DNA of 64,000 nucleotides from Naegleria gruberi (lineage: Eukaryota). Below are positions 1-57,394 of the stretch, piece after piece. The translations under genes were made by a program, and so were the position numbers. Position 1 is the stretch's first letter. Each line of letters begins with the position of its first letter. Under the pieces are notes generated by a model. The model was not told the origin of the DNA. It made no database searches and saw nothing but the letters and a program-made list of their open reading frames with translations. Location: the NCBI GenBank assembly GCA_000004985.1, contig GG738932.1, one strand, 5' to 3'.

Positions 1-336
1 GACCCAAACCCAAACCCAAACCCAAACCCGAACCCAAACCCAAACCCAAACCCAAACCCAAACCCAAACCCAAACCCAAACCCAAACCCAAACCCAAACC
101 CAAACCCAAACCCAAACCCAAACCCAAACCCAAACCCAAACCCAAACCCAAACCCAAACCCAAACCCAAACCCAAACCCAAACCCAAACCCAAACCCAAA
201 CCCAAACCCAAACCCAAACCCAAACCCAAACCCAAACCCAAACCCAAACCCAAACCCAAACCCAAACCCAAACCCAAACCCAAACCCAAACCCAAACCCA
301 AACCCAAACCCAAACCCAAACCCAAACCCAAACCCA
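1..336. repeat. Telomeric repeat array. About 56 copies of CCCAAA read on the + strand (G-strand TTTGGG), with one variant unit (cccgaa at 27-32).
   Basis: Perfect hexamer periodicity from position 1 to 336. The C-rich strand reads 5'->3' on + at the left edge, so the G-rich strand runs toward the terminus, the orientation expected for a true left chromosome end. Confidence 0.95.
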
Positions 337-699
337 GAACTAAAAATAGAATTCTTCTAAACCCAACCTTCAAACCCTAGCCCAAAATTATAAACTTATT
401 CAAATATCATTAAATTTTATATCATTCGATTGGAAATGATGAGTAGAACAACGTGGTATATTTAGTTTTTCAATTTATAAAATATTAACTTTGTAAATAA
501 TGTCAGATTAAAATTTCATAAATGAAACCATATGAAGAATGATAATTTAAAAATCCTTTAATGAGATTATATAGTATATATCATCGTTAACAACATTCAT
601 AATCACTTTCATATAAAATTTCAAAAGTTCATCTCTGTAGGTATAAAAGTATAGAGGGAAAAGGGAAGTTGTGAGGTAAAATAGGTCAGCTATAACTTT

Positions 700-1750
700 T
701 GAGTTTCTCATCAAAACATATTGAAACCTGATATGAAAATGTTCCATTTGATGAGTAAACATCGAATATCAAATTTATTTTAACTTTCATATTTAAAGAT
801 TTCTTCCCTCAACCATCATGGTCAACTAGGGATGAAAAGGATGAAATCTTGAAAAAGGACCACCTATTAAAACTTTACCAAAATGATGTACATGATCTAT
901 AATGATATAGAATTCAATTTCATGTCCTAAAAATCAGAAATGGTATCATGAGAAGGTAAATGTTGATATTTTATGGTTGACTTAAAGGAAAGACAAGTCA
1001 GACCAACTCTATCAAATACATCACTTCAACCAACAATATATACATGAAAATGCTTCATTCTACGAGTAGAGATAGAAAATCAAGTTTATTTTCACTTTCA
1101 TGTTCATGATTTCAACTCTATCATACCAATTAGTCAACTGTGGACATGGATGAAAATCTGGAAAATGACCACTCTATGCAACTTTACCACCATGTTCAAC
1201 ATCTCAAATAATGTATATGGTTCAATTTTCAGACATTTTGGAGAATATTCTATCTTTCAGTAAGGTAAAGGGTGAAATTTCAAGGTTGTCTTTAAAGATC
1301 AAGGAGGAAATCTTGAATATAGAGAACCACATCCTCAATCTACAAAATACATATCAATCGATTGGAAATCAATAGTACATCTCGAAAATATAATTTATTT
1401 TATGTTTTGAAATATCTCCTTGACCTTTTTTAGTCAATTAAGACAATTAAGGATGACACTATATGAAAAGTTACCAATCTCAAAATAAATGATAATATCG
1501 TGTTCTACATCTCAAATAAAGTGGACTATCTTCAAATTATATATTTTCATTTCAAGAAATGCATTCAGTAGATAGTACATGGTGATACTTCAAGAGAATG
1601 GATGAAATCTGAAAGGTACAGAAACAACTCCATTTTCACTGAAATTGATATCATGATATGTAGACACTCTAATTAGCATATTATATCAATTTCATAAATA
1701 TTGGTTCAGTAGATGTCGAGTTGTCACCTCTATCATTTTACTATAGAACT
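700..1750. repeat. Degenerate subtelomeric tandem satellite. About 3 units of ~330 bp at roughly 70-80% identity.
   Basis: Units beginning near 722, 1048 and 1370 share recurring blocks: atgaaaatg.tcat..., tttattttnactttcat, tagtcaac/tagtcaatt, ggatgaaaatctgaaaa, tttaccaaaatgatg / tttaccaccatgttc, catctcaaataa. No long ORFs. Confidence 0.6.
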
Positions 1751-2087
1751 TTGACATAAAATCAAAGCTTATGCTCCAACTCGCTCATTATACATACAAT
1801 CAATCTAGAATTGATGCCACATAGAGTGTACATCCATTAAATACAAAATATATAGTTTGGAAACAATTTGTATTACTTTCAAATAGTGAGTCAGTTAATG
1901 TTCAATGTCAATAGTGCTTTTATCCAAGTTTACACTCCATATCAGTGAAAGTACGTCCAATCATCATGTAACTTTGCCAGATACAATTAATCACATTATT
2001 ATACATGTGGTATCAGTTTTAGTCTGTTAGAATTGAATTCAATATGATAATAATAACATCTGTCAAATTGTCACATTTCAACATATA

Positions 2088-3902
2088 NNNNNNNNNNNNN
2101 NNNNNNNNNNNNNNNNNNNNNNNNNNNNNNNNNNNNNNNNNNNNNNNNNNNNNNNNNNNNNNNNNNNNNNNNNNNNNNNNNNNNNNNNNNNNNNNNNNNN
2201 NNNNNNNNNNNNNNNNNNNNNNNNNNNNNNNNNNNNNNNNNNNNNNNNNNNNNNNNNNNNNNNNNNNNNNNNNNNNNNNNNNNNNNNNNNNNNNNNNNNN
2301 NNNNNNNNNNNNNNNNNNNNNNNNNNNNNNNNNNNNNNNNNNNNNNNNNNNNNNNNNNNNNNNNNNNNNNNNNNNNNNNNNNNNNNNNNNNNNNNNNNNN
2401 NNNNNNNNNNNNNNNNNNNNNNNNNNNNNNNNNNNNNNNNNNNNNNNNNNNNNNNNNNNNNNNNNNNNNNNNNNNNNNNNNNNNNNNNNNNNNNNNNNNN
2501 NNNNNNNNNNNNNNNNNNNNNNNNNNNNNNNNNNNNNNNNNNNNNNNNNNNNNNNNNNNNNNNNNNNNNNNNNNNNNNNNNNNNNNNNNNNNNNNNNNNN
2601 NNNNNNNNNNNNNNNNNNNNNNNNNNNNNNNNNNNNNNNNNNNNNNNNNNNNNNNNNNNNNNNNNNNNNNNNNNNNNNNNNNNNNNNNNNNNNNNNNNNN
2701 NNNNNNNNNNNNNNNNNNNNNNNNNNNNNNNNNNNNNNNNNNNNNNNNNNNNNNNNNNNNNNNNNNNNNNNNNNNNNNNNNNNNNNNNNNNNNNNNNNNN
2801 NNNNNNNNNNNNNNNNNNNNNNNNNNNNNNNNNNNNNNNNNNNNNNNNNNNNNNNNNNNNNNNNNNNNNNNNNNNNNNNNNNNNNNNNNNNNNNNNNNNN
2901 NNNNNNNNNNNNNNNNNNNNNNNNNNNNNNNNNNNNNNNNNNNNNNNNNNNNNNNNNNNNNNNNNNNNNNNNNNNNNNNNNNNNNNNNNNNNNNNNNNNN
3001 NNNNNNNNNNNNNNNNNNNNNNNNNNNNNNNNNNNNNNNNNNNNNNNNNNNNNNNNNNNNNNNNNNNNNNNNNNNNNNNNNNNNNNNNNNNNNNNNNNNN
3101 NNNNNNNNNNNNNNNNNNNNNNNNNNNNNNNNNNNNNNNNNNNNNNNNNNNNNNNNNNNNNNNNNNNNNNNNNNNNNNNNNNNNNNNNNNNNNNNNNNNN
3201 NNNNNNNNNNNNNNNNNNNNNNNNNNNNNNNNNNNNNNNNNNNNNNNNNNNNNNNNNNNNNNNNNNNNNNNNNNNNNNNNNNNNNNNNNNNNNNNNNNNN
3301 NNNNNNNNNNNNNNNNNNNNNNNNNNNNNNNNNNNNNNNNNNNNNNNNNNNNNNNNNNNNNNNNNNNNNNNNNNNNNNNNNNNNNNNNNNNNNNNNNNNN
3401 NNNNNNNNNNNNNNNNNNNNNNNNNNNNNNNNNNNNNNNNNNNNNNNNNNNNNNNNNNNNNNNNNNNNNNNNNNNNNNNNNNNNNNNNNNNNNNNNNNNN
3501 NNNNNNNNNNNNNNNNNNNNNNNNNNNNNNNNNNNNNNNNNNNNNNNNNNNNNNNNNNNNNNNNNNNNNNNNNNNNNNNNNNNNNNNNNNNNNNNNNNNN
3601 NNNNNNNNNNNNNNNNNNNNNNNNNNNNNNNNNNNNNNNNNNNNNNNNNNNNNNNNNNNNNNNNNNNNNNNNNNNNNNNNNNNNNNNNNNNNNNNNNNNN
3701 NNNNNNNNNNNNNNNNNNNNNNNNNNNNNNNNNNNNNNNNNNNNNNNNNNNNNNNNNNNNNNNNNNNNNNNNNNNNNNNNNNNNNNNNNNNNNNNNNNNN
3801 NNNNNNNNNNNNNNNNNNNNNNNNNNNNNNNNNNNNNNNNNNNNNNNNNNNNNNNNNNNNNNNNNNNNNNNNNNNNNNNNNNNNNNNNNNNNNNNNNNNN
3901 NN
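2088..3902. other. Assembly gap, a run of 1815 N
   Basis: Continuous n characters. The two 649-aa ORFs of X residues in the track are artefacts of this gap. Confidence 1.
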
Positions 3903-4532
3903 CATCGGGTTGGATGACACCACTGTTTTAAAGATTACAGTTGTGAAAAATGGACTGATCTCAATCATTATTGAGAATTTAAGTACACTTTAAAGGACTG
4001 CCACCATTTCCATCGAGTTTGGAACATTTTCCATCTACTTGAAAAAATTCCTTAATAATTGTGAAGTAAGAAAAGTTCAGTAAGAAAAAATAAATTTCAG
4101 TTTGTTGTATAGTTAATACATTCTCATTCAAAAGGTTGGATAAGTCTCTTTTTTGAAAAGAAGCAACGGGTTTGAGCCACTCCACGTTCATTTGAAACAA
4201 TTTCAAAAAGTTTTTACATCGGGTTGGATGACAACCATTGTTTAAAAGATAACAGTTGTGAAAAAATCACAAATCTCAATCATTTCTTAGAATTTAACTA
4301 TGCTGTAACGGAATGTTACCATCTACAGCAATTTTAGAACACTTTCCATCTACTTGAAACAATTCCTTAATAATTATGATGCAAGCAAAGTTCACTAAGA
4401 AAAGAATATTTCAAAAACTTATTGTTGGTGGAATGATTCTGCACAACTATAGAGCATCTCCTTGTTCCGATATTGTACATGTGGATATTAGTAAAAAAAC
4501 CACCACTATAACAAAAATTTTTGTTTTGGTCC
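3903..4532. repeat. Tandem repeat with a ~314-bp period, 2 units, immediately right of the gap
   Basis: catcgggttggatgaca...ttccatctacttgaaa(a/c)aattccttaataatt...aagttca(g/c)taagaaaa occurs at 3903 and again at 4217 with ~80% identity over ~185 bp. Confidence 0.7.
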
Positions 4533-5817
4533 AACAGATGATGAGAAATGGCACTTGTAAATGTTGAAAATAATGTTATACCAATTCTGCACCATACACA
4601 ACTTGGCTACTTATCCATCAGTTACAAAATGATGATACAATTGAAATAAATATCACATCTCATATTAAATATAGAGATGGTCAATTAAGGTTCCTCAATA
4701 GGAAAGTACCCTAAGGACAATGAGATTCAATACCAAATTGATACAATATGTTATTAACATCATATAATGAGGTTTCTATCATTTTCACATCATTTGGACA
4801 TCATTCAGTATTCATGTCATTCAACCATGTCACCAACTACTCATGATTATATGACAAGTCAATATCAAGATGTTCAACAAGATAGAATATCATACAACTA
4901 CTCTTATAATTGATATTCATAACGTATTTGAGTGATAGATATCAATAACTATATAATTGGAATATCTGTCAAGCTACTGTCCCAATTGACAAAAAGGTAC
5001 CATTCTTACATGTCATGAATGGTAAGAATCAATACTAATTCAATATTATCATGTTATAATCATCAAATACTCTCATCGAATCAATTTTGGAATGATTTAA
5101 ATATCATCTTAGATAGTTATCATATGACAAAGTTACTACCTTAGTGAACAACCCACGTCATTAATAAATGTTAAAATTGAAATATTTCAATCATATATTC
5201 ATATATATATCAGTTATAGTGTATAATACCATTTTTATAGTATAAAATCAATTATTGGTATGATGGCAATATTTCAATTAAACATTGACATTGCAACATT
5301 TCCCAAATTGGAAATATAGATTATAACATCATGATATTCAATATTTATTGATAGAGTACAGCGATGACATATATTATCCAATAAAATATTCAGATCCCTT
5401 TAAAAGTGTTAACCACATGGAAAGCTCCCCTATTGCCATCCAAGTTGACTTCCAAAAGTCTCAAAATGGATCCACTACTGTATTTATCAGTATTATTGAA
5501 TTTTATTGTGTTTCCATATTATAGGTCAACATCTTGGTCAATTAATCATTTACTAGTAGAAAAGCTACAAGGAAATGTTTCTCTCTAGTCACCACCCAAT
5601 AACCTCCTCTTCATGAAGAAGAGTTCTAAATCTTGAGATGAGAACCTTGTTCACTTTCAATATGTTGAATTAATGCAGCCACTTTCCCATTCTTCTATCA
5701 AGTGTTGTCACAATAAGAAGCTTCTGATTCGTATCAACACTCTTTATAAAAATTCAATAATAAACAATTTCAAAATCTTAAATCAATAAGAGATTGGAGT
5801 AAGAGGTATCCGAGGTT

Positions 5818-5833
5818 CCCAAACCCAAACCCA
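5818..5833. repeat. Interstitial telomere-like fragment (cccaaacccaaaccca)
   Basis: About 2.7 units of the terminal hexamer in the same orientation, 5.8 kb inside the end. Confidence 0.5.
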
Positions 5834-6310
5834 GTTGGAAGGTAAGATTATTACCATTCTTCCATACGTACAAGTCGACTTTGCATTTTTCGACTTGTAA
5901 AATTTTAATAAAGTAAATTTTTGAAAACTTGATACCTAATTTATTGAAAAAACAGGTCCTGATAATCGAAAAATCGAGGACCTGATTTGTTCAAAACCGA
6001 TGCTCAAAACTCAACACCTTGATTTTTTACAAACACAGACCTCAGCCAATCATTAGGGAATTACTTCTAAATTTTTAAAAAAAATATTTGTCAATCCTTC
6101 TCACCTCCCACGGTCTATAATTTTAATAACAAATATCCCACAAATGTTGGAATTTTGGTTTATTTGTTTCTTTTTCAAAAAAGCAATCGCAATTTTCATC
6201 TGGAGATCTCCAATTTCATTAAGCGAATGAAACTATTCGTAAAATTCAAGTGGCAATTTTCGCCAATAGTCGATCGCCAAAATGTGTATACTCATTGTAG
6301 ACCAGAGACG

Positions 6311-7891
6311 TTAATAAATATTACAATTTAGAGTTTTCTGATTCGAGAATCTCTTTGAAGCAAATCGAATTGCTTTTCCATCATTCGTTACAGCTGCCAA
6401 GACAATCTCTTCACAATCTTTGAGTTTTGGAGAGGCATACATAAGGGCAGATCCATTTTTTGTTACGGCTGTCAAAACAAGTTCCTTATCTGCCTTGAAT
6501 TCTTCACTTGCAAATCTGAGACAAAATCCACAGTGTGAAAGAGCCTCTTTAAGAAGCTCTCTGTCGTCTTTGAAAATGGTCTTCTCCAAAAGGTCCGGAT
6601 TAAATTGCAGAATTGATTTGAAATCCTCTCTGTCACTCTCTATTATTTTGTAAAGAGATTGAACTTTGGATGTAAAATAAGGCGTTCTTGCAGCTAGGAA
6701 AAAGCATTCTCTATCCTTTTGGATTGCCTCTGGCATTTCGTTAATATACTTTCCGTTACTTTTCAATATTGTGAGAACTAGTTCTCTATTATTAAGCAGA
6801 AAATCACTATTGATATAATGTAGAATCGTGAAGTTTGATTTAAATAGTGCCTTTTTCACAATATCTTCATCTTCCTTGAATTTTCCAATATATTGAAAAG
6901 AACTTGCTGCATCTATGTCAATAATCATGTCAATAATTTCTCTATCAGTCCGTATTTCCTCAGAACAGTTTCTTATTAAACATACATCACTCTTCAATGC
7001 CTCAATCATAAAAACCCTATCACTCCACCATTTTCCTATTGGAGAAGCATAAAACAGAATTGATTGTGATGATTTGTAAACATCCATAACAAAATCTGTA
7101 TCTTCCAAAAGTTCTTTTGGAATTAATGTGCCCAAGGATGGATTTCTAATGAATACCTTCTTGGCAATATGTCTCATCATCTTGATATAATCAGGAACAT
7201 ATGCATAACATTTTGGATCCAATTCAATAGCATGCATGGTCAACTTGTCCACAAATTTGTACTTGTCTGGCAACGTACTATAATATTCCTTGGTCATTGA
7301 GAAGGGGAAGTACACTCTTTCTTTAAACTTTTCAAAATTGTAAAATTCTGGATTAAATGGACGATTTACCATCGTTACAAACTCAAAAAAGTCAACCGTG
7401 TCTCCATTCACTCTAATCCTCCCATCTCTGCTCAATGTTAATATGTTAGATAATTGGGTATCAACTCCCAAGATTGCATAACCATTCTGTGTGTCCAAAC
7501 CATTATGTGTGTCCAAAAACCAAGATTCGACAGGTCCCAACAAATTACTAACATGCACAACAGTATTAGACCATGGCTGTCTACCATTCGTCAAGACAGT
7601 TACAAACAATTTCAAATGGAAAGGTATGGCAATTTGTAATTCTTCTTGTTTCTTCTCCAATTCTTCTTCACTCACCACTTCTTCCATGAGAGGGTGATAT
7701 TGTAGACAATTATTCTCATCATGCCACATCCGAGTCATTTCACGTTTCTCCAACAAATATCTAGAATGGTGAAAAGTCTTGTTGACCAATGCAATTCTCT
7801 TCCTGTCTGTTCCTCTCGGAAGAAATTCAAACACATACCCGAGAATATCAATATTTAATTGATCCATCATGATTGTGGAATTATTTTGCAA
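6311..7891 (-). CDS. F-box-like N-terminus plus DUF4116-repeat protein (526 aa), single exon
   Basis: The N-terminal LNIDILGYVFEFLP...RIALVNKTF looks F-box-like. The C-terminal half carries repeated ELVLTAVTKNGSALMYASPKLKDCEEIVLAAVTNDGKAIRFAS units, which match the DUF4116 repeat signature (VLxAVxxNGxALxYAS). TAA stop at 6311-6313. Confidence 0.75.
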   Translation of the reverse strand: MQNNSTIMMDQLNIDILGYVFEFLPRGTDRKRIALVNKTFHHSRYLLEKREMTRMWHDENNCLQYHPLMEEVVSEEELEKKQEELQIAIPFHLKLFVTVLTNGRQPWSNTVVHVSNLLGPVESWFLDTHNGLDTQNGYAILGVDTQLSNILTLSRDGRIRVNGDTVDFFEFVTMVNRPFNPEFYNFEKFKERVYFPFSMTKEYYSTLPDKYKFVDKLTMHAIELDPKCYAYVPDYIKMMRHIAKKVFIRNPSLGTLIPKELLEDTDFVMDVYKSSQSILFYASPIGKWWSDRVFMIEALKSDVCLIRNCSEEIRTDREIIDMIIDIDAASSFQYIGKFKEDEDIVKKALFKSNFTILHYINSDFLLNNRELVLTILKSNGKYINEMPEAIQKDRECFFLAARTPYFTSKVQSLYKIIESDREDFKSILQFNPDLLEKTIFKDDRELLKEALSHCGFCLRFASEEFKADKELVLTAVTKNGSALMYASPKLKDCEEIVLAAVTNDGKAIRFASKRFSNQKTLNCNIY

Positions 7892-10781: not shown

Positions 10782-12137
10782 ATGATGAACTCACAATTAT
10801 CTCCTGAACGAAGCTTAAAGAAAGATGAGCCGAAGCTCTCTTGGCTGCACACTCACGTTGCACCATTGTTTTTAATGCTCGTCACTCCACCTTGTGCTTT
10901 TTTATATTGGTACACTTGCGAACACCTTGGTGGCTCTGTCATTGCTCTTTTTAATATGTTCGGAAAGGAAGGTATCATTAACTCTATCGTCTCCATTGTT
11001 CAGCCTTATATTTTAGGATCTAAGGTTGCTTGGGCAATTATTGTGGTGTTCTCTATTTTGCAATTAACATTGATGAAAGTTTTGCCAGGAAAAAAGTTTA
11101 ATGGCCCGATGACTCCTAAAGGAAATCTACCAGTCTACACAGACAATGGATTATTAGCTTATTTAATTACCATTATGCTATTCTTCCTTTGCTCAAGCAC
11201 TGGTCTTAATTTATTCCCTTCCTCAATTCTTTATAACCATTTTCCATACTTGATTGGAGCCTTGAACATTTTCAGTTTGGTTTTTTGTCTCTTCCTTCAA
11301 ATCAAAGGCATGTATTTCCCAAGCAGCACAGATTGTGGCTCAAATGAAGGAAATTTCATTATGGATTACTATTGGGGAACTGAATTGCATCCAGTTGTTT
11401 TTGGTTTTGATGTTAAGGTCTTTACGAATTGTAGATTCGGAATGATGAGCTGGCCTTTACTTATTTTATCATTTGCTGCCAAACAATACGAAGTCACTGG
11501 TCAACTTAGCGACTCTATGATCATTAATTTGGTTATTCAATTCATCTACCTTACCAAGTTTTACATGTGGGAAAGTGGCTACTTGTGCTCAATTGATATT
11601 ATGCATGATAGAGCTGGTTATTACATTTGTTGGGGATGTTTAGTGTGGGTACCATCTGTTTACACTTCCACATCCTTGTACATTTCCAAGTATCCAAACA
11701 ATTTGGGCCCTTATTGGACTGCATTCATCTTGATTGGAGGTGCTTCAGCAGTCATCCTTAACTATTTGGCAGATATCCAACGTCAAAATGTACGTAAGGC
11801 AAACGGAAAATGCCTTGTTTGGGGAAAGAAACCAGCACTCATTGAGGGTGAAATCATTGCTGAAAATGGAGATAAGAAAAAGTTCATCTTGTTAATATGT
11901 GGTTTTTGGGGTATCACCAGACATTTTCATTATGTTATGGAATTGCTGGGAACATTTTTCTGGACTGTTCCAGCACTGTTCAATAACTTCTTGCCATACT
12001 TTTATTTATTTTTCTTAACAATATTGTTGTTCCATAGAGCAGAAAGAGACCAGAAGAGATGTAGCAAGAAGTATGGTAAATATTGGGAAGAATATTGCAG
12101 ACGAGTTCCATACAAGGTAATTCCTTATGTATTTTAG
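10782..12137 (+). CDS. Sterol reductase of the DHCR7/ERG4/ERG24 family (451 aa), single exon
   Basis: Sterol-reductase signatures GNFIMDYYWGTELHPV and GFWGITRHFHYVMELLG. The C-terminus LLFHRAERDQKRCSKKYGKYWEEYCRRVPYKVIPYVF is typical of 7-dehydrocholesterol reductase and C-24(28) reductase. Multi-pass membrane protein. Confidence 0.85.
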   Translation: MMNSQLSPERSLKKDEPKLSWLHTHVAPLFLMLVTPPCAFLYWYTCEHLGGSVIALFNMFGKEGIINSIVSIVQPYILGSKVAWAIIVVFSILQLTLMKVLPGKKFNGPMTPKGNLPVYTDNGLLAYLITIMLFFLCSSTGLNLFPSSILYNHFPYLIGALNIFSLVFCLFLQIKGMYFPSSTDCGSNEGNFIMDYYWGTELHPVVFGFDVKVFTNCRFGMMSWPLLILSFAAKQYEVTGQLSDSMIINLVIQFIYLTKFYMWESGYLCSIDIMHDRAGYYICWGCLVWVPSVYTSTSLYISKYPNNLGPYWTAFILIGGASAVILNYLADIQRQNVRKANGKCLVWGKKPALIEGEIIAENGDKKKFILLICGFWGITRHFHYVMELLGTFFWTVPALFNNFLPYFYLFFLTILLFHRAERDQKRCSKKYGKYWEEYCRRVPYKVIPYVF

Positions 12138-25588: not shown

Positions 25589-26104
25589 TTAGTTTAATAA
25601 TTCATGAATGGAAGGAATACAAGTTCGAATAATCTTGTGATGATTGGTTTCTGAAGATAAATTACAGGTAGAGTTTGGAGATGAAGAAAGAGTTGTTGAG
25701 TTGGGCGAAACTAGGTGGTCCTCTTTCTTTGGTATAATTACAGGAATTGATGAATTACAATTATTCGAAAGTGAAACACCTGTGTTTCTTCTTTCCATTT
25801 TGTGTTTCTTTAGAGAAGATAACCCAGATGTATTCTTTGTATTGTAAGGTTTCCAATTATTATTGTTATGGAGATTAGTCCCAAAGTTTATCACACTTTC
25901 GTATGCATGTAACGTTCCAGGTTTTCTATTCTTGATTGTAAACATGCAACCCATTTTGGTGAAGGAAACAATTTCAAACACTCTGTGCTGATTGGATCCA
26001 TTCGAAACTTGTTGTTTCCTTGATTGGTTGGCACCTGGCAGCTGTCTCTCCACATGCACATACTCATTTGACATTTGGCGTCTTTCTTTCTTTACCAACA
26101 CCAT
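25589..26104 (-). CDS. SISIRELLN-family paralog a (171 aa)
   Basis: Internal motif FEIVSFTKMGCMFTIKNRKPGTLHAYESVINF. The C-terminus IIRTCIPSIHELLN-stop is a diverged form of the family ending. S/N-rich low-complexity middle. Confidence 0.6.
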   Translation of the reverse strand: MVLVKKERRQMSNEYVHVERQLPGANQSRKQQVSNGSNQHRVFEIVSFTKMGCMFTIKNRKPGTLHAYESVINFGTNLHNNNNWKPYNTKNTSGLSSLKKHKMERRNTGVSLSNNCNSSIPVIIPKKEDHLVSPNSTTLSSSPNSTCNLSSETNHHKIIRTCIPSIHELLN

Positions 26105-26395: not shown

Positions 26396-26908
26396 TTAAT
26401 TGAGCAATTCCTTTATTGACAGAACTGCTGAACGTTTTACATGTGGTTGCGTGGTATTATTCAGCAGTATTAGTGGAGTGGTATTCGAAAGGTTTAGTGT
26501 ATCAAGAATACATGAAGAATTGCAGTTGTTGGTTGGTGCTGATTCTGTTGCTGAAGTTGTGGATACGCAACATGGAGTTGATAATGTACATTTAGATTCA
26601 GTTTTCTTCTTTTGTTTTACTGATCTAGAAGTTTTTCTATTCGAATCTTTGGTTGGTTGATAAGTGTAGAATTTTACTGAACCAATCTTTGAGATTTCTC
26701 TTCTTTTAAGAGATTTCTGAACAGAGTAACTCTCCTTTCCAATCTTTGTTTCTTCACACGTTGGTAAAGTTCTCCAGTGTGAAAAATAAACCTGTGAGCT
26801 TTCGTCTGGTTTAATCTTCTTTGAAAACATGCTGACATTTGCTTGCTCCACCATCACAACCCTGTCATGTTGAAGAACAGGAAGAGATTGCACAATATTA
26901 TATTTCAT
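26396..26908 (-). CDS. SISIRELLN-family paralog b (170 aa)
   Basis: N-proximal VVMVEQANVSMFSKKIKP...QVYFS. C-terminus KRSAVLSIKELLN-stop. Confidence 0.55.
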   Translation of the reverse strand: MKYNIVQSLPVLQHDRVVMVEQANVSMFSKKIKPDESSQVYFSHWRTLPTCEETKIGKESYSVQKSLKRREISKIGSVKFYTYQPTKDSNRKTSRSVKQKKKTESKCTLSTPCCVSTTSATESAPTNNCNSSCILDTLNLSNTTPLILLNNTTQPHVKRSAVLSIKELLN

Positions 26909-27333: not shown

Positions 27334-28011
27334 TTAATTTAATAATTCCCGAATTGATATCGAAGACCTCACAATTCTAGGTGAAGAAACTTTAGGCGTT
27401 GTTTGGACGAAACTTGTTGGTGAAACAAATTCTTGTTGACAGGTGGTAGGAATGCAAGTCATGGTTGTATTCACAGTCATTGGTGTGGATACCTGTTGAG
27501 TTGGAGGAATAAATTGGGTTGGATTAGAATAACTTTGAATGAATTCTTGTCTTGGTGAATTGTTGGCATTTGACATTTTGTTTTGCTTTTTTAATTTAGG
27601 TGATGCTGATCTAGATTGAATGGAACCACTTGATGAGGAGCTACAGGAAGTATTATCATTGACTGAGAAAACTTTCTCATGAGAATGTAAAGATTGCTTT
27701 CGTCTACGTTTGGAAACATTAAATAATGAATTGGTCATTGGAGAAAGTTCATAAACAATCTGATTGTTATTCGAAGGATGCTGTAAAAGATTAGTCTGAC
27801 AGCAATTGGTTGTGGTTGGAGACATTTTACGTGACTTTTTAATCTTATTCGAAATTTGTGGAGTTGTAGCATTTTGATTCCAATAGAAATAATTTGGTTG
27901 TGCTGTCGATTGACCATAACACTTGTAGGATTGAGCTTCTGTTTGCAAAGTCATAACTAGTTTCCTATCTTGCTGACTGCTGCTTTGAAAATTAACAATG
28001 GAAAGCTTCAT
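27334..28011 (-). CDS. SISIRELLN-family paralog c (225 aa)
   Basis: ATG at 28011. Motif NSLFNVSKRRRKQSLHSHEKVFSV. C-terminus SPRIVRSSISIRELLN-stop. Confidence 0.65.
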   Translation of the reverse strand: MKLSIVNFQSSSQQDRKLVMTLQTEAQSYKCYGQSTAQPNYFYWNQNATTPQISNKIKKSRKMSPTTTNCCQTNLLQHPSNNNQIVYELSPMTNSLFNVSKRRRKQSLHSHEKVFSVNDNTSCSSSSSGSIQSRSASPKLKKQNKMSNANNSPRQEFIQSYSNPTQFIPPTQQVSTPMTVNTTMTCIPTTCQQEFVSPTSFVQTTPKVSSPRIVRSSISIRELLN

Positions 28012-28943
28012 TATGTTTCGAATATTGTTTAGTGTTGTTTTTTTGTCTGTTGATGTAACACTGTGCTGTCTATATCCAACAGTTCAAAAATTCTTCAGCT
28101 TTTCACTTATTGTGTAACTTTATTCGAATGAGGAAGACACTCAAATTGTTATTGGATTCCAAATTGTTTCTTCATTGACCAAATTTAATGTGTACTTTCC
28201 ATTAATGCCAAGTTGAAAATTGACACCTTGCTTCTTTTTAAAAAACTCCCAAAACATCAATTTCCTTCCAACATGTAAGGTGCTAAACGAGTCAAGACAA
28301 GACTTTTTGTAGTATGGTTGTGAAAAGGAAATGGATTGAGTCACGTTGATTTATGGCACATTTACTTTACCATTTTCAAAATCTAATAGGTCAAACTGTA
28401 GTAAAACATGTTGAGGTGATGTTGTAAAAGGGGTATTTATTGAAATGATGTGGTGTTTATTAACGAGCTCTTCAATCAAGTCGACCTCATAATTGAATTC
28501 CATTCGAAAATAAAAAATTCTGCACGTTTTTAATCTATTTGGCTCTTCAAAATACCAAAAAGTGGTCTTACCAAATTCATTCTGATTTACCGCTCAAACT
28601 CGTTATGAATAAATTTAAAAAAAAAATAATCCAATCACTTACTCTCTGCTTCAATGACTCTACCACTTCTAGAATTTACTTCATAAAGATGAAGAATTTT
28701 CTGCACAGTTCATCCAACAAGTTACCATTAACACCTTCCAAGAAAGTAGATTTTCCTTATGAAAAGGCCTGCTAATCCTATTTCTAACCTTACTAGTTGT
28801 TAATAGTTGAAAAACATAGCTCGGGCGCACAATTTGATGATGAAAGATATGTTGTTGATGAAAGAGAACCTTTCAATAGATGGTTATCGTGGTTTATTGT
28901 CGTGCCATTATCTCTTCTGTTTCGCGATATTAAAACAAACCAA

Positions 28944-31004
28944 ATGGAAAAAAGAATGTCGACAACAGGTTCTTCCTCATCATCGTCATCTACATCTTCA
29001 AACTCTCCACAAGCAACAACACCATCATCAAATAATAATAATAATAACTCCAATACAAATAATAATAATAATAATAATACTGATGGTAATAAAGAACAAG
29101 AACACGATGAAAATATTCAAAACGGATTCTATTCAATATCTTGTTTAAATTGTAGAAAATCCCATCGATCCTGCAATAAACAATTTCCAACATGTTCTGA
29201 TTGTTTTGAAAGGAATCAGGAATGTATCTATGAATGTCCAAAGAAGAAGGGACGTAAGAAGGGAAGTAGAAATCAGAAAACTCTCGCAACAACAACAACA
29301 ACTGATAATCAACAAGCTAATAGAACAACAACAAAATCTAGGAAACAAAAAACTAATGCTGCAACTTCTCCTCCAGAAGCAACTAATTCATCCTCTGCCT
29401 CCTCATCCTCTTCAAATAATGTAGTGGGTGTTCAACAACAAGATGATTATACAGATTTGTTGAATTTAATTAATAATTATTCTCCATCTTCCAATCAATC
29501 AACTCATCAACTTATTAGAAGAATTTATCAACCCTATGTTAGAATGCAACAACACTTTTTGAATGATAGTATTAGAAAGAGAACTGTTGATATATTCTTT
29601 GAAGTGGTAGGAATGGGATATGATATCATTAGTAGACCAAAATTGGAACAATTAGCATTTGATTATATGAATGATAATATTGAGGAGGATGGAATATTTG
29701 CAAAGAATGTTGGATTTCAAGTTTCTGCAACGAGACACTCTGCAAAAGCAATGCTCTTTGCTATGCAAGCAATGGGAGAACAACGAATGGGAAATTTGGA
29801 TCTTGCTCACAAGGCCTACATGGAATCGAGACATCAATTGACACAATCATTTGATAATATTGATAATACCTATGTGAAAATTGCTTATGGATTATTGTCT
29901 TGCTATTTGGCAGGTGAGGGAGATGATGTGACTGCTCACTATTATCTCAATAATCTCCAACATGCTCTCGAACGTCCAGCCACCAACAATGCCTATCTCC
30001 TCCTAGAGACTGGAGATATCAGCGAGCCAGAAAGACAAGCAAAGCATTTCAATACCTTTATGCTGAAACAAAAAGTTTGCCTCGATCACAACAATCCACA
30101 AGATTTGAATATTTGGGAAGGTTTCATTTCAATGTACACTGCCAAGACACATGAAAATCCTCCTCAAGTGATTACAGATATTATTAGACGACAACCTTCT
30201 CCTCAATTGTTGGCAGTTGTTGATTTGATTATTTCAGTAATGAATACTGCATCAAAATTACATCTTTTCACAGAGAGTCAACGAAAAACATCAGCTGTCT
30301 ATGTTTCCATGATGAATTATTCAGCAAAGATTGCTGTCTTGCTCACTCTGGGAATTCAAGGTGGCGCCTTGTTGGATAATCTGGCAGATAGTGTTACTGC
30401 TTTGACTGATAGTGATATTTTCATGCTGTTGCCTTGTAGTGCCATTCACTACTTTGCCATTGCAATGAATTATAGAGTGAAACAATTCCAATTTGTGCAA
30501 GCAATTATTCAACAAAAATTGGATACTGGAAGAAGTTTAATGTCAATATTTGAAGACCAATATGAAAAACACTACTTTGAAATGGTTATGAAGGACATGA
30601 AGGCCCTCACTAGAATGAATACCAGATTTAAACGTGTGGAAAAGTACTATAGCACTTTAATTAGCAATTTGAAAGCAATTTTACAATGGAAATCGGATAG
30701 AATGGTGGAAATTATTCAAAAAATTGGATTTATTTCAGAGCATATTGGAGTTGAACAATTCAATCCTTACCAGAATACATTGCACAATGAACAAGTAATT
30801 GGCTCGGCTCTAAGCAAACAAGCTTTACCATCATCTTCATTTATTTCATCATTTTCATCATTTGAAAAGAACACATCAGCACCAACAATTTCTCAAAGTG
30901 ATCAACAACTCCTTTTGGATTCATTGGATAATCTTCTCGGCTCTTCAGCAAATAATGACGAGTTCCTAAACTTTGACATTCCAGATTTCACATCACAACA
31001 TTAA
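28944..31004 (+). CDS. Zn(II)2Cys6 binuclear-cluster transcription factor (about 686 aa from ATG 28944; the ORF extends upstream to 28797)
   Basis: CLNCRKSHRSCNKQFPTCSDCFERNQEC has the C-x2-C-x6-C-x6-C-x2-C-x6-C spacing of a Zn2Cys6 domain, followed by the basic stretch KKKGRKKGSR. S/N/T-rich N-terminal and linker regions, then a long helical middle-homology-like domain. TAA stop at 31002-31004. Confidence 0.8.
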   Translation: MEKRMSTTGSSSSSSSTSSNSPQATTPSSNNNNNNSNTNNNNNNNTDGNKEQEHDENIQNGFYSISCLNCRKSHRSCNKQFPTCSDCFERNQECIYECPKKKGRKKGSRNQKTLATTTTTDNQQANRTTTKSRKQKTNAATSPPEATNSSSASSSSSNNVVGVQQQDDYTDLLNLINNYSPSSNQSTHQLIRRIYQPYVRMQQHFLNDSIRKRTVDIFFEVVGMGYDIISRPKLEQLAFDYMNDNIEEDGIFAKNVGFQVSATRHSAKAMLFAMQAMGEQRMGNLDLAHKAYMESRHQLTQSFDNIDNTYVKIAYGLLSCYLAGEGDDVTAHYYLNNLQHALERPATNNAYLLLETGDISEPERQAKHFNTFMLKQKVCLDHNNPQDLNIWEGFISMYTAKTHENPPQVITDIIRRQPSPQLLAVVDLIISVMNTASKLHLFTESQRKTSAVYVSMMNYSAKIAVLLTLGIQGGALLDNLADSVTALTDSDIFMLLPCSAIHYFAIAMNYRVKQFQFVQAIIQQKLDTGRSLMSIFEDQYEKHYFEMVMKDMKALTRMNTRFKRVEKYYSTLISNLKAILQWKSDRMVEIIQKIGFISEHIGVEQFNPYQNTLHNEQVIGSALSKQALPSSSFISSFSSFEKNTSAPTISQSDQQLLLDSLDNLLGSSANNDEFLNFDIPDFTSQH

Positions 31005-36588: not shown

Positions 36589-37038
36589 ATGCCATCTGCC
36601 ACCAATCATACAACATTCACTTTCCAATCTACTTCCCCAAATCACATGTTTGGCATTCTCAAAAGCCAGAAAACAATACAGCTGTCAAAACATGAATCAG
36701 TTTTTTGTTTGACATCTGGCATTGACTTACAATTCACGCCAACCAAAAAGCAAACCAAGAAAAGAACCAACAAGAAAACTTCCAACAAGAATAATCTTTT
36801 AGAAAATTTATCTGATTGCACAACAAGTGAAATTTCACAAGATTCGACAATGTCACTAATCATTTCACAACATGTCAAACCACAAACTCAATTTATAGCT
36901 TCTCCACAACAAACTCCATCAATTTCGAATACAACAAGTTCAAATTTGCCAAAATCATCACTTTCGTCCAATGCAAATACGAATGTCAGTAAGAAAGTTA
37001 TTCGAACTTCAATTTCCATTCGAGAATTATTAAATTAA
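36589..37038 (+). CDS. SISIRELLN-family paralog d (149 aa)
   Basis: Motif FTFQSTSPNHMFGILKSQK...HESVFCL. C-terminus KKVIRTSISIRELLN-stop. Confidence 0.65.
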   Translation: MPSATNHTTFTFQSTSPNHMFGILKSQKTIQLSKHESVFCLTSGIDLQFTPTKKQTKKRTNKKTSNKNNLLENLSDCTTSEISQDSTMSLIISQHVKPQTQFIASPQQTPSISNTTSSNLPKSSLSSNANTNVSKKVIRTSISIRELLN

Positions 37039-42700: not shown

Positions 42701-43204
42701 ATGTCTACAACACATCTATTCAATACTCTCAACAATAGTGCTAACAGATATCGTCACACTAGTCCTCATTCCATCATGATGATGTCAACTAACAATATTC
42801 TGCATTCGTCTCCTTCCACACTTTCGAATAATACCTTTCCAATAACCAAAGTGATTAAAAACAATGCAGTACCACATACACAGCAATCCAAGATAACAAA
42901 GCCATCCAAAACTAAAAAGGCAACCTATTTGGAAGGTTTCGACACTGTTTCTTTCACTGCCAATCAATCAATGTTTGGCGTTACTAGAAAACGAAAGAGT
43001 AAACCAATCGAATATGAACAAGTTTTGAATTTTGGTTGTATTGCTCCTCCTTCCAGTGAGAATAGTGTCATTCCACGAAAGATGAGACAATCTCTTGATA
43101 ATTATTCAAGCGTTTCGTCCACTTCTTCCACAACGACGTCAAATGAAAGAACGAGTCCAAGAATTGTGAGAACTTCCATTAGTATTCGAGAATTGTTGAA
43201 TTGA
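42701..43204 (+). CDS. SISIRELLN-family paralog e (167 aa)
   Basis: Motif GFDTVSFTANQSMFGVTRKRKSKPIEYEQVLNF. C-terminus SPRIVRTSISIRELLN-stop. Confidence 0.7.
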   Translation: MSTTHLFNTLNNSANRYRHTSPHSIMMMSTNNILHSSPSTLSNNTFPITKVIKNNAVPHTQQSKITKPSKTKKATYLEGFDTVSFTANQSMFGVTRKRKSKPIEYEQVLNFGCIAPPSSENSVIPRKMRQSLDNYSSVSSTSSTTTSNERTSPRIVRTSISIRELLN

Positions 43205-52162: not shown

Positions 52163-52699
52163 ATGGTACAAAAGCAAGTGAGAGATTCAAACAAGAAGAA
52201 TTTAATTGGGTCAATTAGTTCACCACAAAAGATTGGCAAACAAAACAATAACATGCTGAAAGCTCCAAGTTTTGATTTTGATGTTGTGAGTTTCACCAAT
52301 AATCACAGCATGTTTGCCACATCAAGACAGAGAAAAGCACCTGTGCAAGCTTATGAACAAGTACTTATTCTGCAACCTCAAACTCTCATTAGTTCTCATG
52401 AGCTTGAAATGCCTAGAAAAAAGCAGAAGAAACATCGAGTGACTGGGTCCAAGATTTTTGAAACTACTCTACCTGAAGATTTACATCCACCTCAAACAAG
52501 AGTCACAACTACATGCATAGCATCTTCATGCAACTGCTCTACATCCTCATCATTGAATGTATCAATGCAAACACCTTCTTCACCTGACCAGTTTATGATC
52601 GGTTACAATAATCAGCAGCTTAATACCAGCACTAAATCTTCATCCAGTTCTTCACGTATTCATCGCTCATCAATTTCAATCAGAGAATTGTTAAATTGA
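52163..52699 (+). CDS. SISIRELLN-family paralog f (178 aa)
   Basis: Motif FDFDVVSFTNNHSMFATSRQRKAPVQAYEQVL. C-terminus RIHRSSISIRELLN-stop. Confidence 0.7.
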   Translation: MVQKQVRDSNKKNLIGSISSPQKIGKQNNNMLKAPSFDFDVVSFTNNHSMFATSRQRKAPVQAYEQVLILQPQTLISSHELEMPRKKQKKHRVTGSKIFETTLPEDLHPPQTRVTTTCIASSCNCSTSSSLNVSMQTPSSPDQFMIGYNNQQLNTSTKSSSSSSRIHRSSISIRELLN

Positions 52700-53324: not shown

Positions 53325-55366
53325 TTACTTTTTGTTTGCTTCCTCATCTGCCTTTGCTTCTTCCTTTGGTTTGTTGATTGCCTTGTTCAAAATCAATGAG
53401 AGGAAAAACATGACTGCACTAATTACAGTAATAACATAAAATACCATACGATGGTCGATTGGAAATTTGGACACTGCAACAGAGCCAGCGAATATGGATC
53501 CCCCAATTATTGGACTCACCATTCTCGAAAGTGCAACAAATGATTGAGCAGTACCATTCAATTTACCATAATTCTTCCTTGAAACACTGTTATTTGTAAT
53601 GAGGAAAGTACCCAAGAAGCTATAACCATTAGAAACTTGTCTTACTAGGAGAATAAGACCAAGAACACTCCAAAACAACACATGTTTCCACATTGGATCA
53701 TCTTCAGTAGCCACTAACCAAATAATTTCTGGGAAGATGACATTGAAAATAGTATCTACCAAAATACTCCAACGATAACAGGTTAATGGACTGAATTTGG
53801 CAATAACAACAGGTGTAATGAATAATTGATTCACAAAAATGATAAATCCTAAAAATCCTCCCATTACTTTGTGTTTCAAATTCCAAATTTACAAATATTT
53901 GTAGAGAATAACAAGTGAATATTTAACAATATTATAAAAAGAAAACTTACAACCAAGATGATAAGAGGACATTCCCAATCCTCCCTTATCTTTAGGAAGG
54001 ACAGCAAAGAGAGGTAAACATTCATCAAACATGATTTGTTTCGATCCCAATAATAAATAGAGTAAGCATGTTGTTAATGGAACAGGAGAGGCCACCATTT
54101 CATGCTTTCTAAAACTATCGAACTTATTCTTGAGTTTTTGCAATAGGGTTTCCTTAATAACAATTGGTTCTTGATCCTGTTCTTCGAGGTCGTCGGTTGG
54201 AGTTGACAATAAATTTGTTTTGGAAATGGTACTTCCCTTACTCTTGTGTTTATCAGCAATCTCTTCTGATTCCTTGGCAATAAATTTTCTATAATACCAA
54301 CTGTTCTTATTGGCCTCTTCCAGTTTCAAATAGCCCAATACGAAACCAACTAAGGAAAAGCTAGAAATGAAAAAACTTGGTAAAATGTAAGGGAATTGAA
54401 TAACAAAGTTTTGTATCCACTCTGGGAAGAGCATGACAAAACTTGGATATTGTTGATAAGGTCTCGAAAATACACCACCAAGCAATGGTCCTAACACAGA
54501 TGATAGACCAAATGTAATACTAGTCAATGAGAATGCTCTTGCCTGATTGGTACTATCAGTAATTTCTCCTAAATAACTTTTAACAACTCCCAAATTACTG
54601 TATTGTTTCCAATAAATTCCATTGTTTCCATTAAAGATTGTTCATTCAATGTTGTTCAATGTTTCCATTGGTTTTAAAGAAGTTCATTCAATATTAGAAT
54701 GTAAATAACTCAAACATACCCATTCAATAAACCAAACATGAATCTACAAATACATGCCCACCATAACCATCTCGAAAATCCAAACATTAATCCACAAAGG
54801 CCACCAAAAAACGTTCCAAACAGTAAAACAGGCCTTCTTCCAATACTATCCGAAATAGTTCCCCAAAAGAAGGAACTAATAAATTGAGAAAGAAAGTATG
54901 CAGCAGCAACCAATCCAACATAATAACCATACTCTGTTGGATTATCAGTCAAGTTAAAATCAGCAATCATGAATGTAATATAGGGCATTAGGGATGTGAA
55001 AGTCAAACTATCACACAAATACAGGAAAAAGACGACAAATAATTTACCCCAGGGCAATGGAGTAACTTTTTGTGGTTGTTGTTTTTTCTTTTCTGTTTCT
55101 TCTTCTTTTTCTTCTTCTTCTTCGGAAGCTTTTTGTTTTACTTCATCTTCATCCAATTCTTCCAAGGCTCTACTGCTCATCAGATGATGACTAATTGCTA
55201 TAGAATTTTCCTCTCCATCTGATCCTTCATCTTGTACAAGCCTTTTTAAATTCTTTTTCAATTCATATGTTTTTGTTTCCTCTGCTTCTTCTTCTCGCTC
55301 ATCATCACGATCAGAATTAATTGATGAATTAATTGATACCGATTCACTATTCTTCCTCTTTACCAT
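53325..55366 (-). CDS. Major facilitator superfamily transporter of about 611 aa. Exons 55366..54720, 54597..53951 and 53866..53325.
   Basis: Exon 1 has the MFS signature GTISDSIGRRPVLLFG. Intron 1 is 54598-54719 (122 nt, GTATGT...ACAG) and intron 2 is 53867-53950 (84 nt, GTAAGT...ACAAAG). An acidic N-terminal tail, about 12 TM helices in total and a long central loop. Confidence 0.75.
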
Positions 55367-56716: not shown

Positions 56717-57394
56717 ATGAACACCACTATCACTTCTTCCACTGGTTCTTCCTCCAAATCCAAAACCAGAGGACGCATTCAAAAGAAGGCACCAAGAAGA
56801 CAGAAAACCTTCTCTCTCTTCTCCAATCACAATATCCAATCCACAAGTTTCAAAGTACTGCAGAGCACAGAGAATTCCATGATGGGAGTATTCAAAAAGA
56901 CGAGAAGTATGTGCAGTTTGGCTTCATACGAATCTGTTTGGAATATGAACAATACCATGATACAGAACTCTATGCCACAACAGCCATGTGTACATTCAAA
57001 TTGTCCTCCAATAATAGTCACTCTTACTTCCTCTCCATCCAATAATCATACGCAACAACAATCACCTACTAATACCACTCCTTGTACTGCCAGTAGAAAG
57101 AAGAGAGTCATGTCTTCATCTTCCTTGTCGAGTATGTGTGATTCCTCATCTTCAGAAAACACAATAATTGCAGCTCCAATTAATATCATACCCTCAATGC
57201 AAGGATGCCATCCAATATTGCCTCATTCACAATCCTCTCCACAACAAGTCAACATTAGCTCCTTGAATATAACTCCAATCATGCAACCATCCATTGTTGA
57301 AATGACAACAGAATCTCTCTCGCCTTCATCACCAGGGCAATATTTCAAAAAAGGAAGAATCCAAATGCCAACATTAAGGGAGCTCTTGAATTGA
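56717..57394 (+). CDS. SISIRELLN-family paralog h (225 aa), diverged
   Basis: Motif FKVLQSTENSMMGVFKKTRSMCSLASYESVWNM. C-terminus KKGRIQMPTLRELLN-stop. Confidence 0.6.
   Translation: MNTTITSSTGSSSKSKTRGRIQKKAPRRQKTFSLFSNHNIQSTSFKVLQSTENSMMGVFKKTRSMCSLASYESVWNMNNTMIQNSMPQQPCVHSNCPPIIVTLTSSPSNNHTQQQSPTNTTPCTASRKKRVMSSSSLSSMCDSSSSENTIIAAPINIIPSMQGCHPILPHSQSSPQQVNISSLNITPIMQPSIVEMTTESLSPSSPGQYFKKGRIQMPTLRELLN

Follow-up and report, generated by a model that had tools for sequence, protein, structure and literature searches.

The region analysed here is very probably the true left end of a nuclear chromosome scaffold of the amoeboflagellate Naegleria gruberi (Heterolobosea), composed of a conventional telomere and subtelomere. 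The window, by which we mean the whole stretch of 64,000 nucleotides that was analysed, opens with a homogeneous array of TTTGGG-type telomere repeats, which is followed by a gene-poor, repeat-bearing subtelomere. The reading of this region as a left terminus holds, and its architecture is ordinary; nothing in it challenges the current understanding of telomeres. The practical value of the analysis is small: the coordinates of a single N. gruberi chromosome end are revised, and its first gene is placed in a near-identical multi-copy family. The features of the region, with strand and basis, are as follows.

2-336, plus strand: (CCCAAA)n telomere array at the terminus, with TTTGGG on the opposite strand (TRF and sequence).
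337-411, plus strand: telomere-subtelomere junction with telomere-like motifs (sequence and GC skew).
412-732, plus strand: marginal candidate for a fourth ~310-bp unit, which would be the most decayed of the four (weak alignment).
733-1661, plus strand: decayed ~310-bp tandem repeat of three head-to-tail units, non-coding (repeat spacing, blastn, autocorrelation and alignment).
1662-2087, no strand assigned: unique AT-rich non-coding DNA, the distal flank of the gap (no matches to itself or the window).
2088-3902, no strand assigned: assembly gap of 1815 N (sequence).
3903-4413, plus strand: two copies of a 198-bp core (3903-4099 and 4217-4413) with a 117-bp spacer at 4100-4216 (blastn against shuffles).
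4414-5817, no strand assigned: unique AT-rich non-coding subtelomeric DNA (ORF, protein, Rfam and window-gene searches).
5818-5833, plus strand: interstitial telomere fragment CCCAAACCCAAACCCA (TRF and motif counts).
6311-7891, minus strand: first gene, encoding a DUF4116-repeat protein, NAEGRDRAFT_75957, XP_002669083.1 (100% identity; Pfam).

The terminal array was found by TRF to contain 55.8 copies of a period of 6 with 99% matches (score 663), and it holds 54 overlapping 14-mer matches where 0.02 were expected from shuffles. A single CCCGAA variant (TTCGGG on the G-strand) occurs at about 27-32, near the distal end, while neither reading of the sequence nor TRF revealed any CCCCAA (TTGGGG) unit within 2-336. 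The array begins at base 2 of the scaffold with the C-strand on top, in the orientation expected of a left end. An earlier note on this DNA had described a TTTGGG-type telomere ending at 336 in left-terminus orientation, and this description was borne out by the near-perfect array. The array also has the properties of a TnGm-class telomere, namely a short G/T-rich unit, a long homogeneous array and a G-strand running 5' to 3' towards the end. Telomerase would synthesise such an array on an RNA template that pairs with TTTGGG.

Between 337 and 411, the motifs ctaaaccc, aaccttc, aaaccc and tagcccaaaa are present. The GC skew of this stretch is -0.71, compared with about 0 to -0.15 in the adjoining DNA, and the stretch is thus C-skewed like the telomere C-strand. 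The motifs are probably decayed telomere repeats.

The array lies at the end of a scaffold, which is probably also the physical end of a chromosome. On the other hand, the scaffold could have stopped at a TTTGGG microsatellite that is internal to the chromosome, or at an assembly chimera. Scaffolds commonly end in repeats, and among the arrays on 120 metagenome contigs that carry (CCCAAA)7, 91 were internal and 9 were at contig ends in the wrong orientation. We nevertheless consider an internal array improbable, since the array in the window is correctly oriented and very homogeneous over 335 bp, and since behind it come the C-skewed stretch with telomere-like motifs and a gene-free repeat zone that is unlike the rest of the window. 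The terminal pattern of TTTGGG arrays in the N. gruberi genome was, in addition, found convincing in a published survey, whose authors stated that experiments were still required (Fulneckova et al. 2013, PMC3622300). None of the 120 metagenome loci resembled this subtelomere or Naegleria genes; two weak matches to ABC transporters were generic. On these metagenome contigs, a comparison of the standard and ciliate codes gave no discrimination, as AT-rich DNA yields long ORFs whenever a code has just one stop codon.

A candidate TTTGGG telomere of N. gruberi is already published. In the same survey (PMC3622300), TTTGGG was put forward for this species on the grounds of where its arrays lie in genome assemblies and how they are oriented. 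The survey thus covers the same species and the same motif, and gave the motif only. It was the only relevant report returned by our literature searches on the Naegleria telomere, subtelomere, TERT and long-read assemblies, and we found in the literature no description of an N. gruberi subtelomere with the features seen here (the apparently fossil 310-bp array, the 198-bp core, the interstitial fragment and the multi-copy DUF4116 gene).

The identity of the organism is settled by proteins encoded in the window with 100% identity to N. gruberi XP_002669064.1 and XP_002669083.1, both from one 195,009-bp contig. These include the product of the ORF at 10782-12137, and the UniProt accessions climb with position along the window (D2W3I9, J1, J6, K0 and K3). 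It had been suspected, from the combination of a TTTGGG telomere with the standard genetic code and spliceosomal introns, that the DNA might not come from a ciliate. This doubt was right, as N. gruberi is a heterolobosean, and its premises were correct as well: the window uses the standard code with ORFs of up to 2749 codons and contains GT-AG introns, one of which restores a conserved ABC-transporter motif.

The hexamer itself would suggest a ciliate, or some other lineage whose telomeres are of the Paramecium type, since TTTGGG is one of the two hexamers of Paramecium telomeres, where TTGGGG and TTTGGG are mixed and added by telomerase at 3' ends (PMC13085455, PMC5855555). Such an origin is refuted by the protein identity, and the absence of TTGGGG units from the array, the long standard-code ORFs and the intron that restores the ABC-transporter motif also speak against it. 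The likeness to Paramecium lies in the shared TTTGGG hexamer. In Paramecium, a TTGGGG-type template yields TTTGGG through misincorporation or stuttering, and the two hexamers are interspersed, whereas the array in this non-ciliate with the standard code is pure TTTGGG apart from the one TTCGGG. The motif that looked unusual is the one already proposed for N. gruberi.

Behind the junction, the three clear units of the ~310-bp repeat have boundaries at 733-1043, 1044-1352 and 1353-1661 and share 52-58% pairwise identity. The spacings of 311 and 309 bp and an autocorrelation peak at lag 309 give a period of 309-311 bp. In blastn, 733-1356 aligned with 1044-1653 at 61% identity over 641 bp with 143 bits, while the maximum in 100 dinucleotide shuffles was 38. 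The degenerate tandem array that had been described as ~330-bp units at 700-1750 is real, but its period is about 310 bp and clear units are confined to 733-1661. A fourth unit is marginal: 412-643 aligned with 1344-1574 at an offset of 932 (3 x 311) with 60% identity and 41 bits, compared with the shuffle maximum of 38, and an nhmmer profile built from the three clear units did not detect 412-643. A structure in which each ~310-bp unit consists of two ~155-bp monomers was rejected, as the sole half-unit alignment (offset 464) scored 31 bits while shuffles reached 38.

The second repeat lies at the assembly gap, whose reported size of 1.8 kb is confirmed by the run of 1815 N. The two copies of the 198-bp core on its proximal side are 82% identical at a spacing of 314-315 bp, with an alignment of 176 bits compared with a shuffle maximum of 40. 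The claim of two ~314-bp tandem units at 3903-4532 stands as far as a duplication at 314-315 bp is concerned, but only the 198-bp core is repeated. The remaining ~116 bp of each supposed unit is not part of the repeat, as 4414-4532 does not align with 4100-4216. An nhmmer profile of the ~310-bp repeat misses the 198-bp repeat and vice versa, and the idea that the two are diverged versions of one element was therefore rejected.

The 314-bp repeat borders the gap on its proximal edge only, while the distal flank at 1654-2087 is unrelated; comparison of 1662-2087 with itself and with the window gave no matches and no relation to either repeat. Since the core homology starts exactly at the edge of the gap, the repeat may continue into the gap. 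The proposal that the gap sits in a collapsed tandem array is supported on the proximal side, where the repeat touches the gap, and gains nothing from the distal flank. The gap has room for a gene of up to about 600 codons.

The subtelomere is further distinguished by its lack of coding sequence. The interval without ORFs of at least 100 amino acids extends from 378 to 6313, while no other such interval in the window is longer than 1.8 kb, a 3.3-fold difference, and long ORFs cover 65-68% of the rest of the window. The longest stop-to-stop ORF is at most 95 amino acids in the subtelomere and at most 79 amino acids within 4414-5817. When the 56 stop-to-stop ORFs of at least 30 amino acids from 337-6310 were concatenated and compared with 5.8 billion proteins, including the N. 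gruberi proteome, no match was found. A Pfam search with the longest subtelomeric ORF, Rfam (E <= 1) and tRNA searches of the subtelomere gave no matches either, and tblastn of 98 window ORFs against 337-6310, a search for relics of window genes, returned self matches only. The earlier note had described a 6-kb gene desert with the first gene at 6.3 kb. It is true that no long ORF precedes 6311, but 1.8 kb of the desert is N, and this gap leaves about 4.2 kb of sequenced subtelomere, which is AT-rich and non-coding. The genes would be buffered from the telomere by the non-coding zone.

The first gene matches Pfam PF13475 (DUF4116) in 5 stretches (E 3.7e-48; 161.3 bits against a gathering cut-off of 24.9). 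Its protein is one of five N. gruberi proteins that cluster at 88-100% identity and are encoded on five scaffolds of 195, 259, 236, 8.7 and 2.8 kb, the other four being NAEGRDRAFT_73877, _53443, _54786 and _82374; no Logan or ENA copies were found within the cluster. The multi-copy state of the first gene hints at duplication among chromosome ends. However, the assembly contains redundant scaffolds, as one identical protein is present on two contigs, and some of the DUF4116 copies may not be paralogues at other ends but duplicates that stem from the assembly or from haplotypes, above all on the 2.8- and 8.7-kb scaffolds.

Whether the two tandem repeats belong to families common to chromosome ends was also considered. 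Both would have arisen by unequal exchange or replication slippage. Plasmodium TAREs and rep20, as well as plant subtelomeric satellites, are telomere-associated tandem repeats, and the N. gruberi end resembles them in that non-coding tandem repeats follow immediately on the telomere, where genes are absent, a position shared with X/Y'- or TARE-like families. It differs from the TAREs and plant satellites in that, instead of a long homogenised satellite, it has a decayed relic of 3-4 units with 52-58% identity. Neither the ~310-bp units nor the two visible copies of the 198-bp core, at 82% identity, show the homogenisation of a shared repeat family, and the ~310-bp array would now be a fossil that is no longer homogenised.

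We see an even chance that the two repeats are confined to this locus, as duplications within non-coding DNA that is decaying, and are not element families shared among chromosome ends. The low identity of the ~310-bp units, which indicates that nothing homogenises them, is unlike active subtelomeric satellites. The two repeats are unrelated to each other, and neither has further copies in the remaining 58 kb of the window. In the metagenome contigs, no copy of either repeat was found, a search with a conserved 33-nt stretch of the 198-bp core gave no matches, and no TTTGGG-ended contig resembled this subtelomere. On the other hand, the adjoining gene is multi-copy at 88-100% identity, which argues that at least part of this end has been copied elsewhere.

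The interstitial fragment bears on the same subject. The earlier note had reported a 16-nt telomere-like fragment at 5818-5833, and it is present exactly there, in the same orientation as the terminal array; the first gene's stop codon is 478 bp away. No other internal occurrence of CCCAAACCC exists in the 64 kb, where shuffles give a chance expectation of 0.02 such 14-mers and 0.25 such 9-mers. The fragment may well be the remnant of an earlier telomere onto which the distal DNA was later copied from another end, and this copying would have proceeded via break-induced replication or ectopic recombination. The DUF4116 gene would have reached other ends in the same way.

It is quite conceivable, if somewhat less than probable, that the fragment is not the relic of a former end but a short insertion that telomerase templated while a double-strand break was repaired, a site of regulation or protein binding, or the product of slippage at a chance CCCAAA seed. 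The fragment has just 2.7 units and no degenerate repeats nearby, and the gene on its proximal side is the multi-copy DUF4116 gene, so that there is no simple divide between unique and duplicated DNA. These origins fit less well with the fact that even the 9-mer has no other internal copy in 64 kb and that the fragment lies within 5.5 kb of the terminus. Its orientation is the one that a healed left end would leave, although half of such insertions would be expected to have it by chance.

If the fragment is read as the remnant of an earlier telomere, a broader but doubtful proposal follows, in which N. gruberi ends exchange sequence: the fragment is an old-telomere scar, about 5.5 kb was copied from another end, and the DUF4116 genes on the five scaffolds form a subtelomeric duplicon family. 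If this is true, neither subtelomere structure nor end-to-end recombination would have been described in a heterolobosean before. In the N. gruberi genome paper, sex or recombination was reportedly inferred from gene content and heterozygosity; to our knowledge, neither has ever been observed in this species.

Interstitial telomere tracts between duplicated blocks are found at the X/Y' junctions of yeast and in human subtelomeric duplicons. The N. gruberi end is like these in having a tract in terminal orientation a few kb inside the end, beside a near-identical multi-copy gene family. It differs from them in that the tract is only 16 nt long and the multi-copy gene is proximal, not distal. 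Given the proximal position of this gene, the fragment does not simply mark the inner boundary of the duplicated DNA as a whole.

The left end of the window is a real, correctly recognised chromosome end, although several coordinates and periods in the earlier note had to be corrected. Behind a conventional telomere array come a non-coding buffer in which tandem duplications have decayed, a single interstitial telomere fragment and, as the first gene, one present in several copies; this architecture is ordinary for a eukaryotic subtelomere. The features are as follows (distal, towards the telomere; proximal, towards the interior).

2-336, +: terminal (CCCAAA)n array (TRF: period 6, 55.8 copies, 99% matches, score 663)
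337-411: junction stretch with telomere-like motifs and a strong C-over-G skew (-0.71), adjoining the array on its inner side
733-1043: ~310-bp repeat, clear unit 1
1044-1352: ~310-bp repeat, clear unit 2
1353-1661: ~310-bp repeat, clear unit 3
2088-3902: assembly gap (1815 N)
3903-4099 and 4217-4413: two copies of a 198-bp core (82% identity), on the proximal side of the gap
5818-5833: 16-nt interstitial telomere fragment CCCAAACCCAAACCCA, oriented like the terminal array

The terminal array started at base 2 with the C-rich strand on top, as at a left chromosome end, and held 54 matches of the motif 14-mer against 0.02 expected from shuffles; its end at 336 and its left-terminus orientation were as first described. 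We found no CCCCAA unit and a single variant, CCCGAA, at about 27-32. Variant telomere repeats usually accumulate at the array base. This one lay near the distal tip, and may be no more than a miscalled base where a read ended.

The ciliate-like telomere had left the lineage to be confirmed. Naegleria belongs to the heteroloboseans and not to the ciliates. The gene at 6311-7891(-) was 100% identical to XP_002669083.1 and ORF 10782-12137 was 100% identical to an N. gruberi protein on the same 195,009-bp contig, while three further ORFs matched N. gruberi proteins exactly, with UniProt accessions rising along the window. The standard code and spliceosomal introns reported earlier were also found: standard-code ORFs reached 2749 codons, which fits the Naegleria lineage, and a 48-nt in-frame GT...AG intron at ~61800-61850(-) was read through by the mechanical ORF 61297-62394, its removal restoring the conserved ABC-transporter motif GIVTQ|EPVLFATS, which fits the lineage as well. 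Because of these exact protein identities, standard-code ORFs and intron, the window is N. gruberi DNA and makes up the first 64 kb of its scaffold.

The TTTGGG motif is already published for N. gruberi. Fulneckova et al. 2013 searched assemblies for correctly oriented terminal arrays, reported TTTGGG as an unexpected N. gruberi candidate and stated that experimental confirmation was still required (PMC3622300); beyond that paper we found no other relevant literature linking Naegleria with TTTGGG. In Paramecium, TTGGGG and TTTGGG are mixed by telomerase misincorporation or stuttering (PMC13085455, PMC5855555), whereas the array in the window is pure TTTGGG, so that the likeness to Paramecium holds only at the hexamer level.

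A scan of public metagenomes for (CCCAAA)7 or longer returned 120 contigs. Of the arrays on them, 32 sat at a contig end in telomere orientation, 9 sat at an end but were wrongly oriented, and 91 were internal. None of the 120 contigs resembled the window or its subtelomere. Unidentified environmental eukaryotes therefore also seem to use TTTGGG telomeres. One project, JAESGV01, accounted for many AT-rich contigs whose terminal arrays were oriented correctly (for example L003, L018, L027, L051, L052, L055, L066, L076).

The earlier note had placed a ~330-bp satellite at 700-1750. The tandem repeat was present, but its period was 309-311 bp and its clear units were the three at 733-1661, which were 52-58% identical pairwise. 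The repeat search gave spacings of 311 and 309 bp, the base autocorrelation peaked at lag 309, and blastn matched 733-1356 to 1044-1653 over 641 bp (61% identity, 143 bits), where 100 dinucleotide-preserving shuffles of 337-2087 reached at most 38 bits. A candidate fourth unit (412-643 against 1344-1574, offset 932 = 3 x 311) was marginal, since it scored only 41 bits and was missed by a profile of units 2-4. No support emerged for a unit built from two ~155-bp monomers.

Two ~314-bp units had also been proposed at 3903-4532. The duplication stood (176 bits, with shuffles reaching at most 40), but only the 198-bp core aligned, the remaining ~116 bp of each presumed unit showing no alignment between units. 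Both units had been taken to border the gap within a collapsed tandem array. At the proximal edge, core homology began exactly at the gap, and the repeat may therefore well run on into it; the distal flank (1654-2087) had no similarity to the core, so the collapsed-array idea was backed from one side only. The ~310-bp repeat and the core were unrelated to each other, neither recurred elsewhere in the 64-kb window, and a conserved 33-nt stretch of the core had no match in public metagenome contigs.

The 6-kb gene desert, with the first gene at 6.3 kb, was confirmed as an interval without ORFs of at least 100 aa (378-6313), 1.8 kb of which is unsequenced. The next largest such interval in the window was 1.8 kb, and long ORFs covered 65-68% of the rest. 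The longest stop-to-stop ORF in 337-2087 or 3903-6310 was at most 95 codons. Searched together, the zone's 56 ORFs of 30 aa or longer matched none of 5.8 billion proteins, a set that included the N. gruberi proteome; tblastn with 98 ORFs of the window turned up no relics of pseudogenes there, and Rfam and ARAGORN gave no matches in the zone.

The interstitial fragment, present where it had been noted, lay 478 bp past the first gene's stop codon, and even the 9-mer CCCAAACCC had no other occurrence on either strand of the window. The product of the first gene has five DUF4116 repeats, and its 90%-identity cluster comprised five proteins of N. gruberi, from scaffolds of 195,009, 259,034, 236,320, 8,734 and 2,755 bp, that were 88-100% identical to the window copy; two of the five were 205-residue C-terminal fragments. 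The neighbouring sterol reductase gene was single-copy at the 90%-identity threshold. These copies suggest duplication within the genome of this chromosome end, or at least of its innermost part. The protein of 36589-37038(+) was recorded identically under two GenBank accessions, EFC35560.1 and EFC36324.1, each on its own contig; redundant or haplotype scaffolds are therefore present in the N. gruberi assembly, and the 2,755- and 8,734-bp scaffolds may be assembly or haplotype duplicates. Such redundancy bears on every copy-number argument. The nearest relatives of the DUF4116 gene outside N. gruberi were 27-49% identical and included proteins named from Legionella and Fusobacteriaceae, alongside many unnamed metagenome proteins.

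From general knowledge of telomere biology, we infer that a telomerase with a template complementary to TTTGGG would maintain the array. The ~310-bp array would be a relic left by unequal exchange or by slippage, one that, given the divergence of its units, nothing appears to homogenise now, and the 198-bp core a younger duplication, possibly extending into the gap. The 16-nt fragment could be the scar of a former telomere to which sequence copied from another end was later added. Its orientation agrees with this; we give this step about an even chance, because the multi-copy gene lies proximal to the fragment. The sole thread worth following is whether duplicated blocks including the DUF4116 gene are common to N. 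gruberi ends.

Further inside lie seven small Ser/Thr/Asn-rich ORFs.

25589-26104, -: small ORF
26396-26908, -: small ORF
27334-28011, -: small ORF
36589-37038, +: small ORF
42701-43204, +: small ORF
52163-52699, +: small ORF
56717-57394, +: small ORF

These ORFs (149-225 aa, over 30 kb) share the C-terminal motif ...R(S/T)SISIRELLN, with variants SIHELLN, SIKELLN and TLRELLN, and look like a locally expanded, lineage-specific family. Three of the seven are exact N. gruberi 'predicted proteins', and neither of the two tested had a Pfam domain.

The gene at 10782-12137(+) encodes a 7-dehydrocholesterol reductase (ERG4/ERG24). Its named non-self relatives were 54-60% identical. Nearly all came from metagenome-assembled bacteria under the labels Parachlamydiaceae, Chlamydiota, Tatlockia or Gammaproteobacteria, which are groups linked to amoebae; the pattern is compatible with genes having passed between amoebae and their bacteria. 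The ORFs 61297-62394 and 62437-63528 look like exons of one ABC-transporter gene, and 53325-53879, 53889-54593 and 54710-55366 like exons of one membrane-transporter gene. The 735-aa ORF at 28797-31004(+) scored above cut-off for the fungal-type Zn(2)-Cys(6) binuclear cluster domain (PF00172, E 4e-6), which is usually regarded as fungal.
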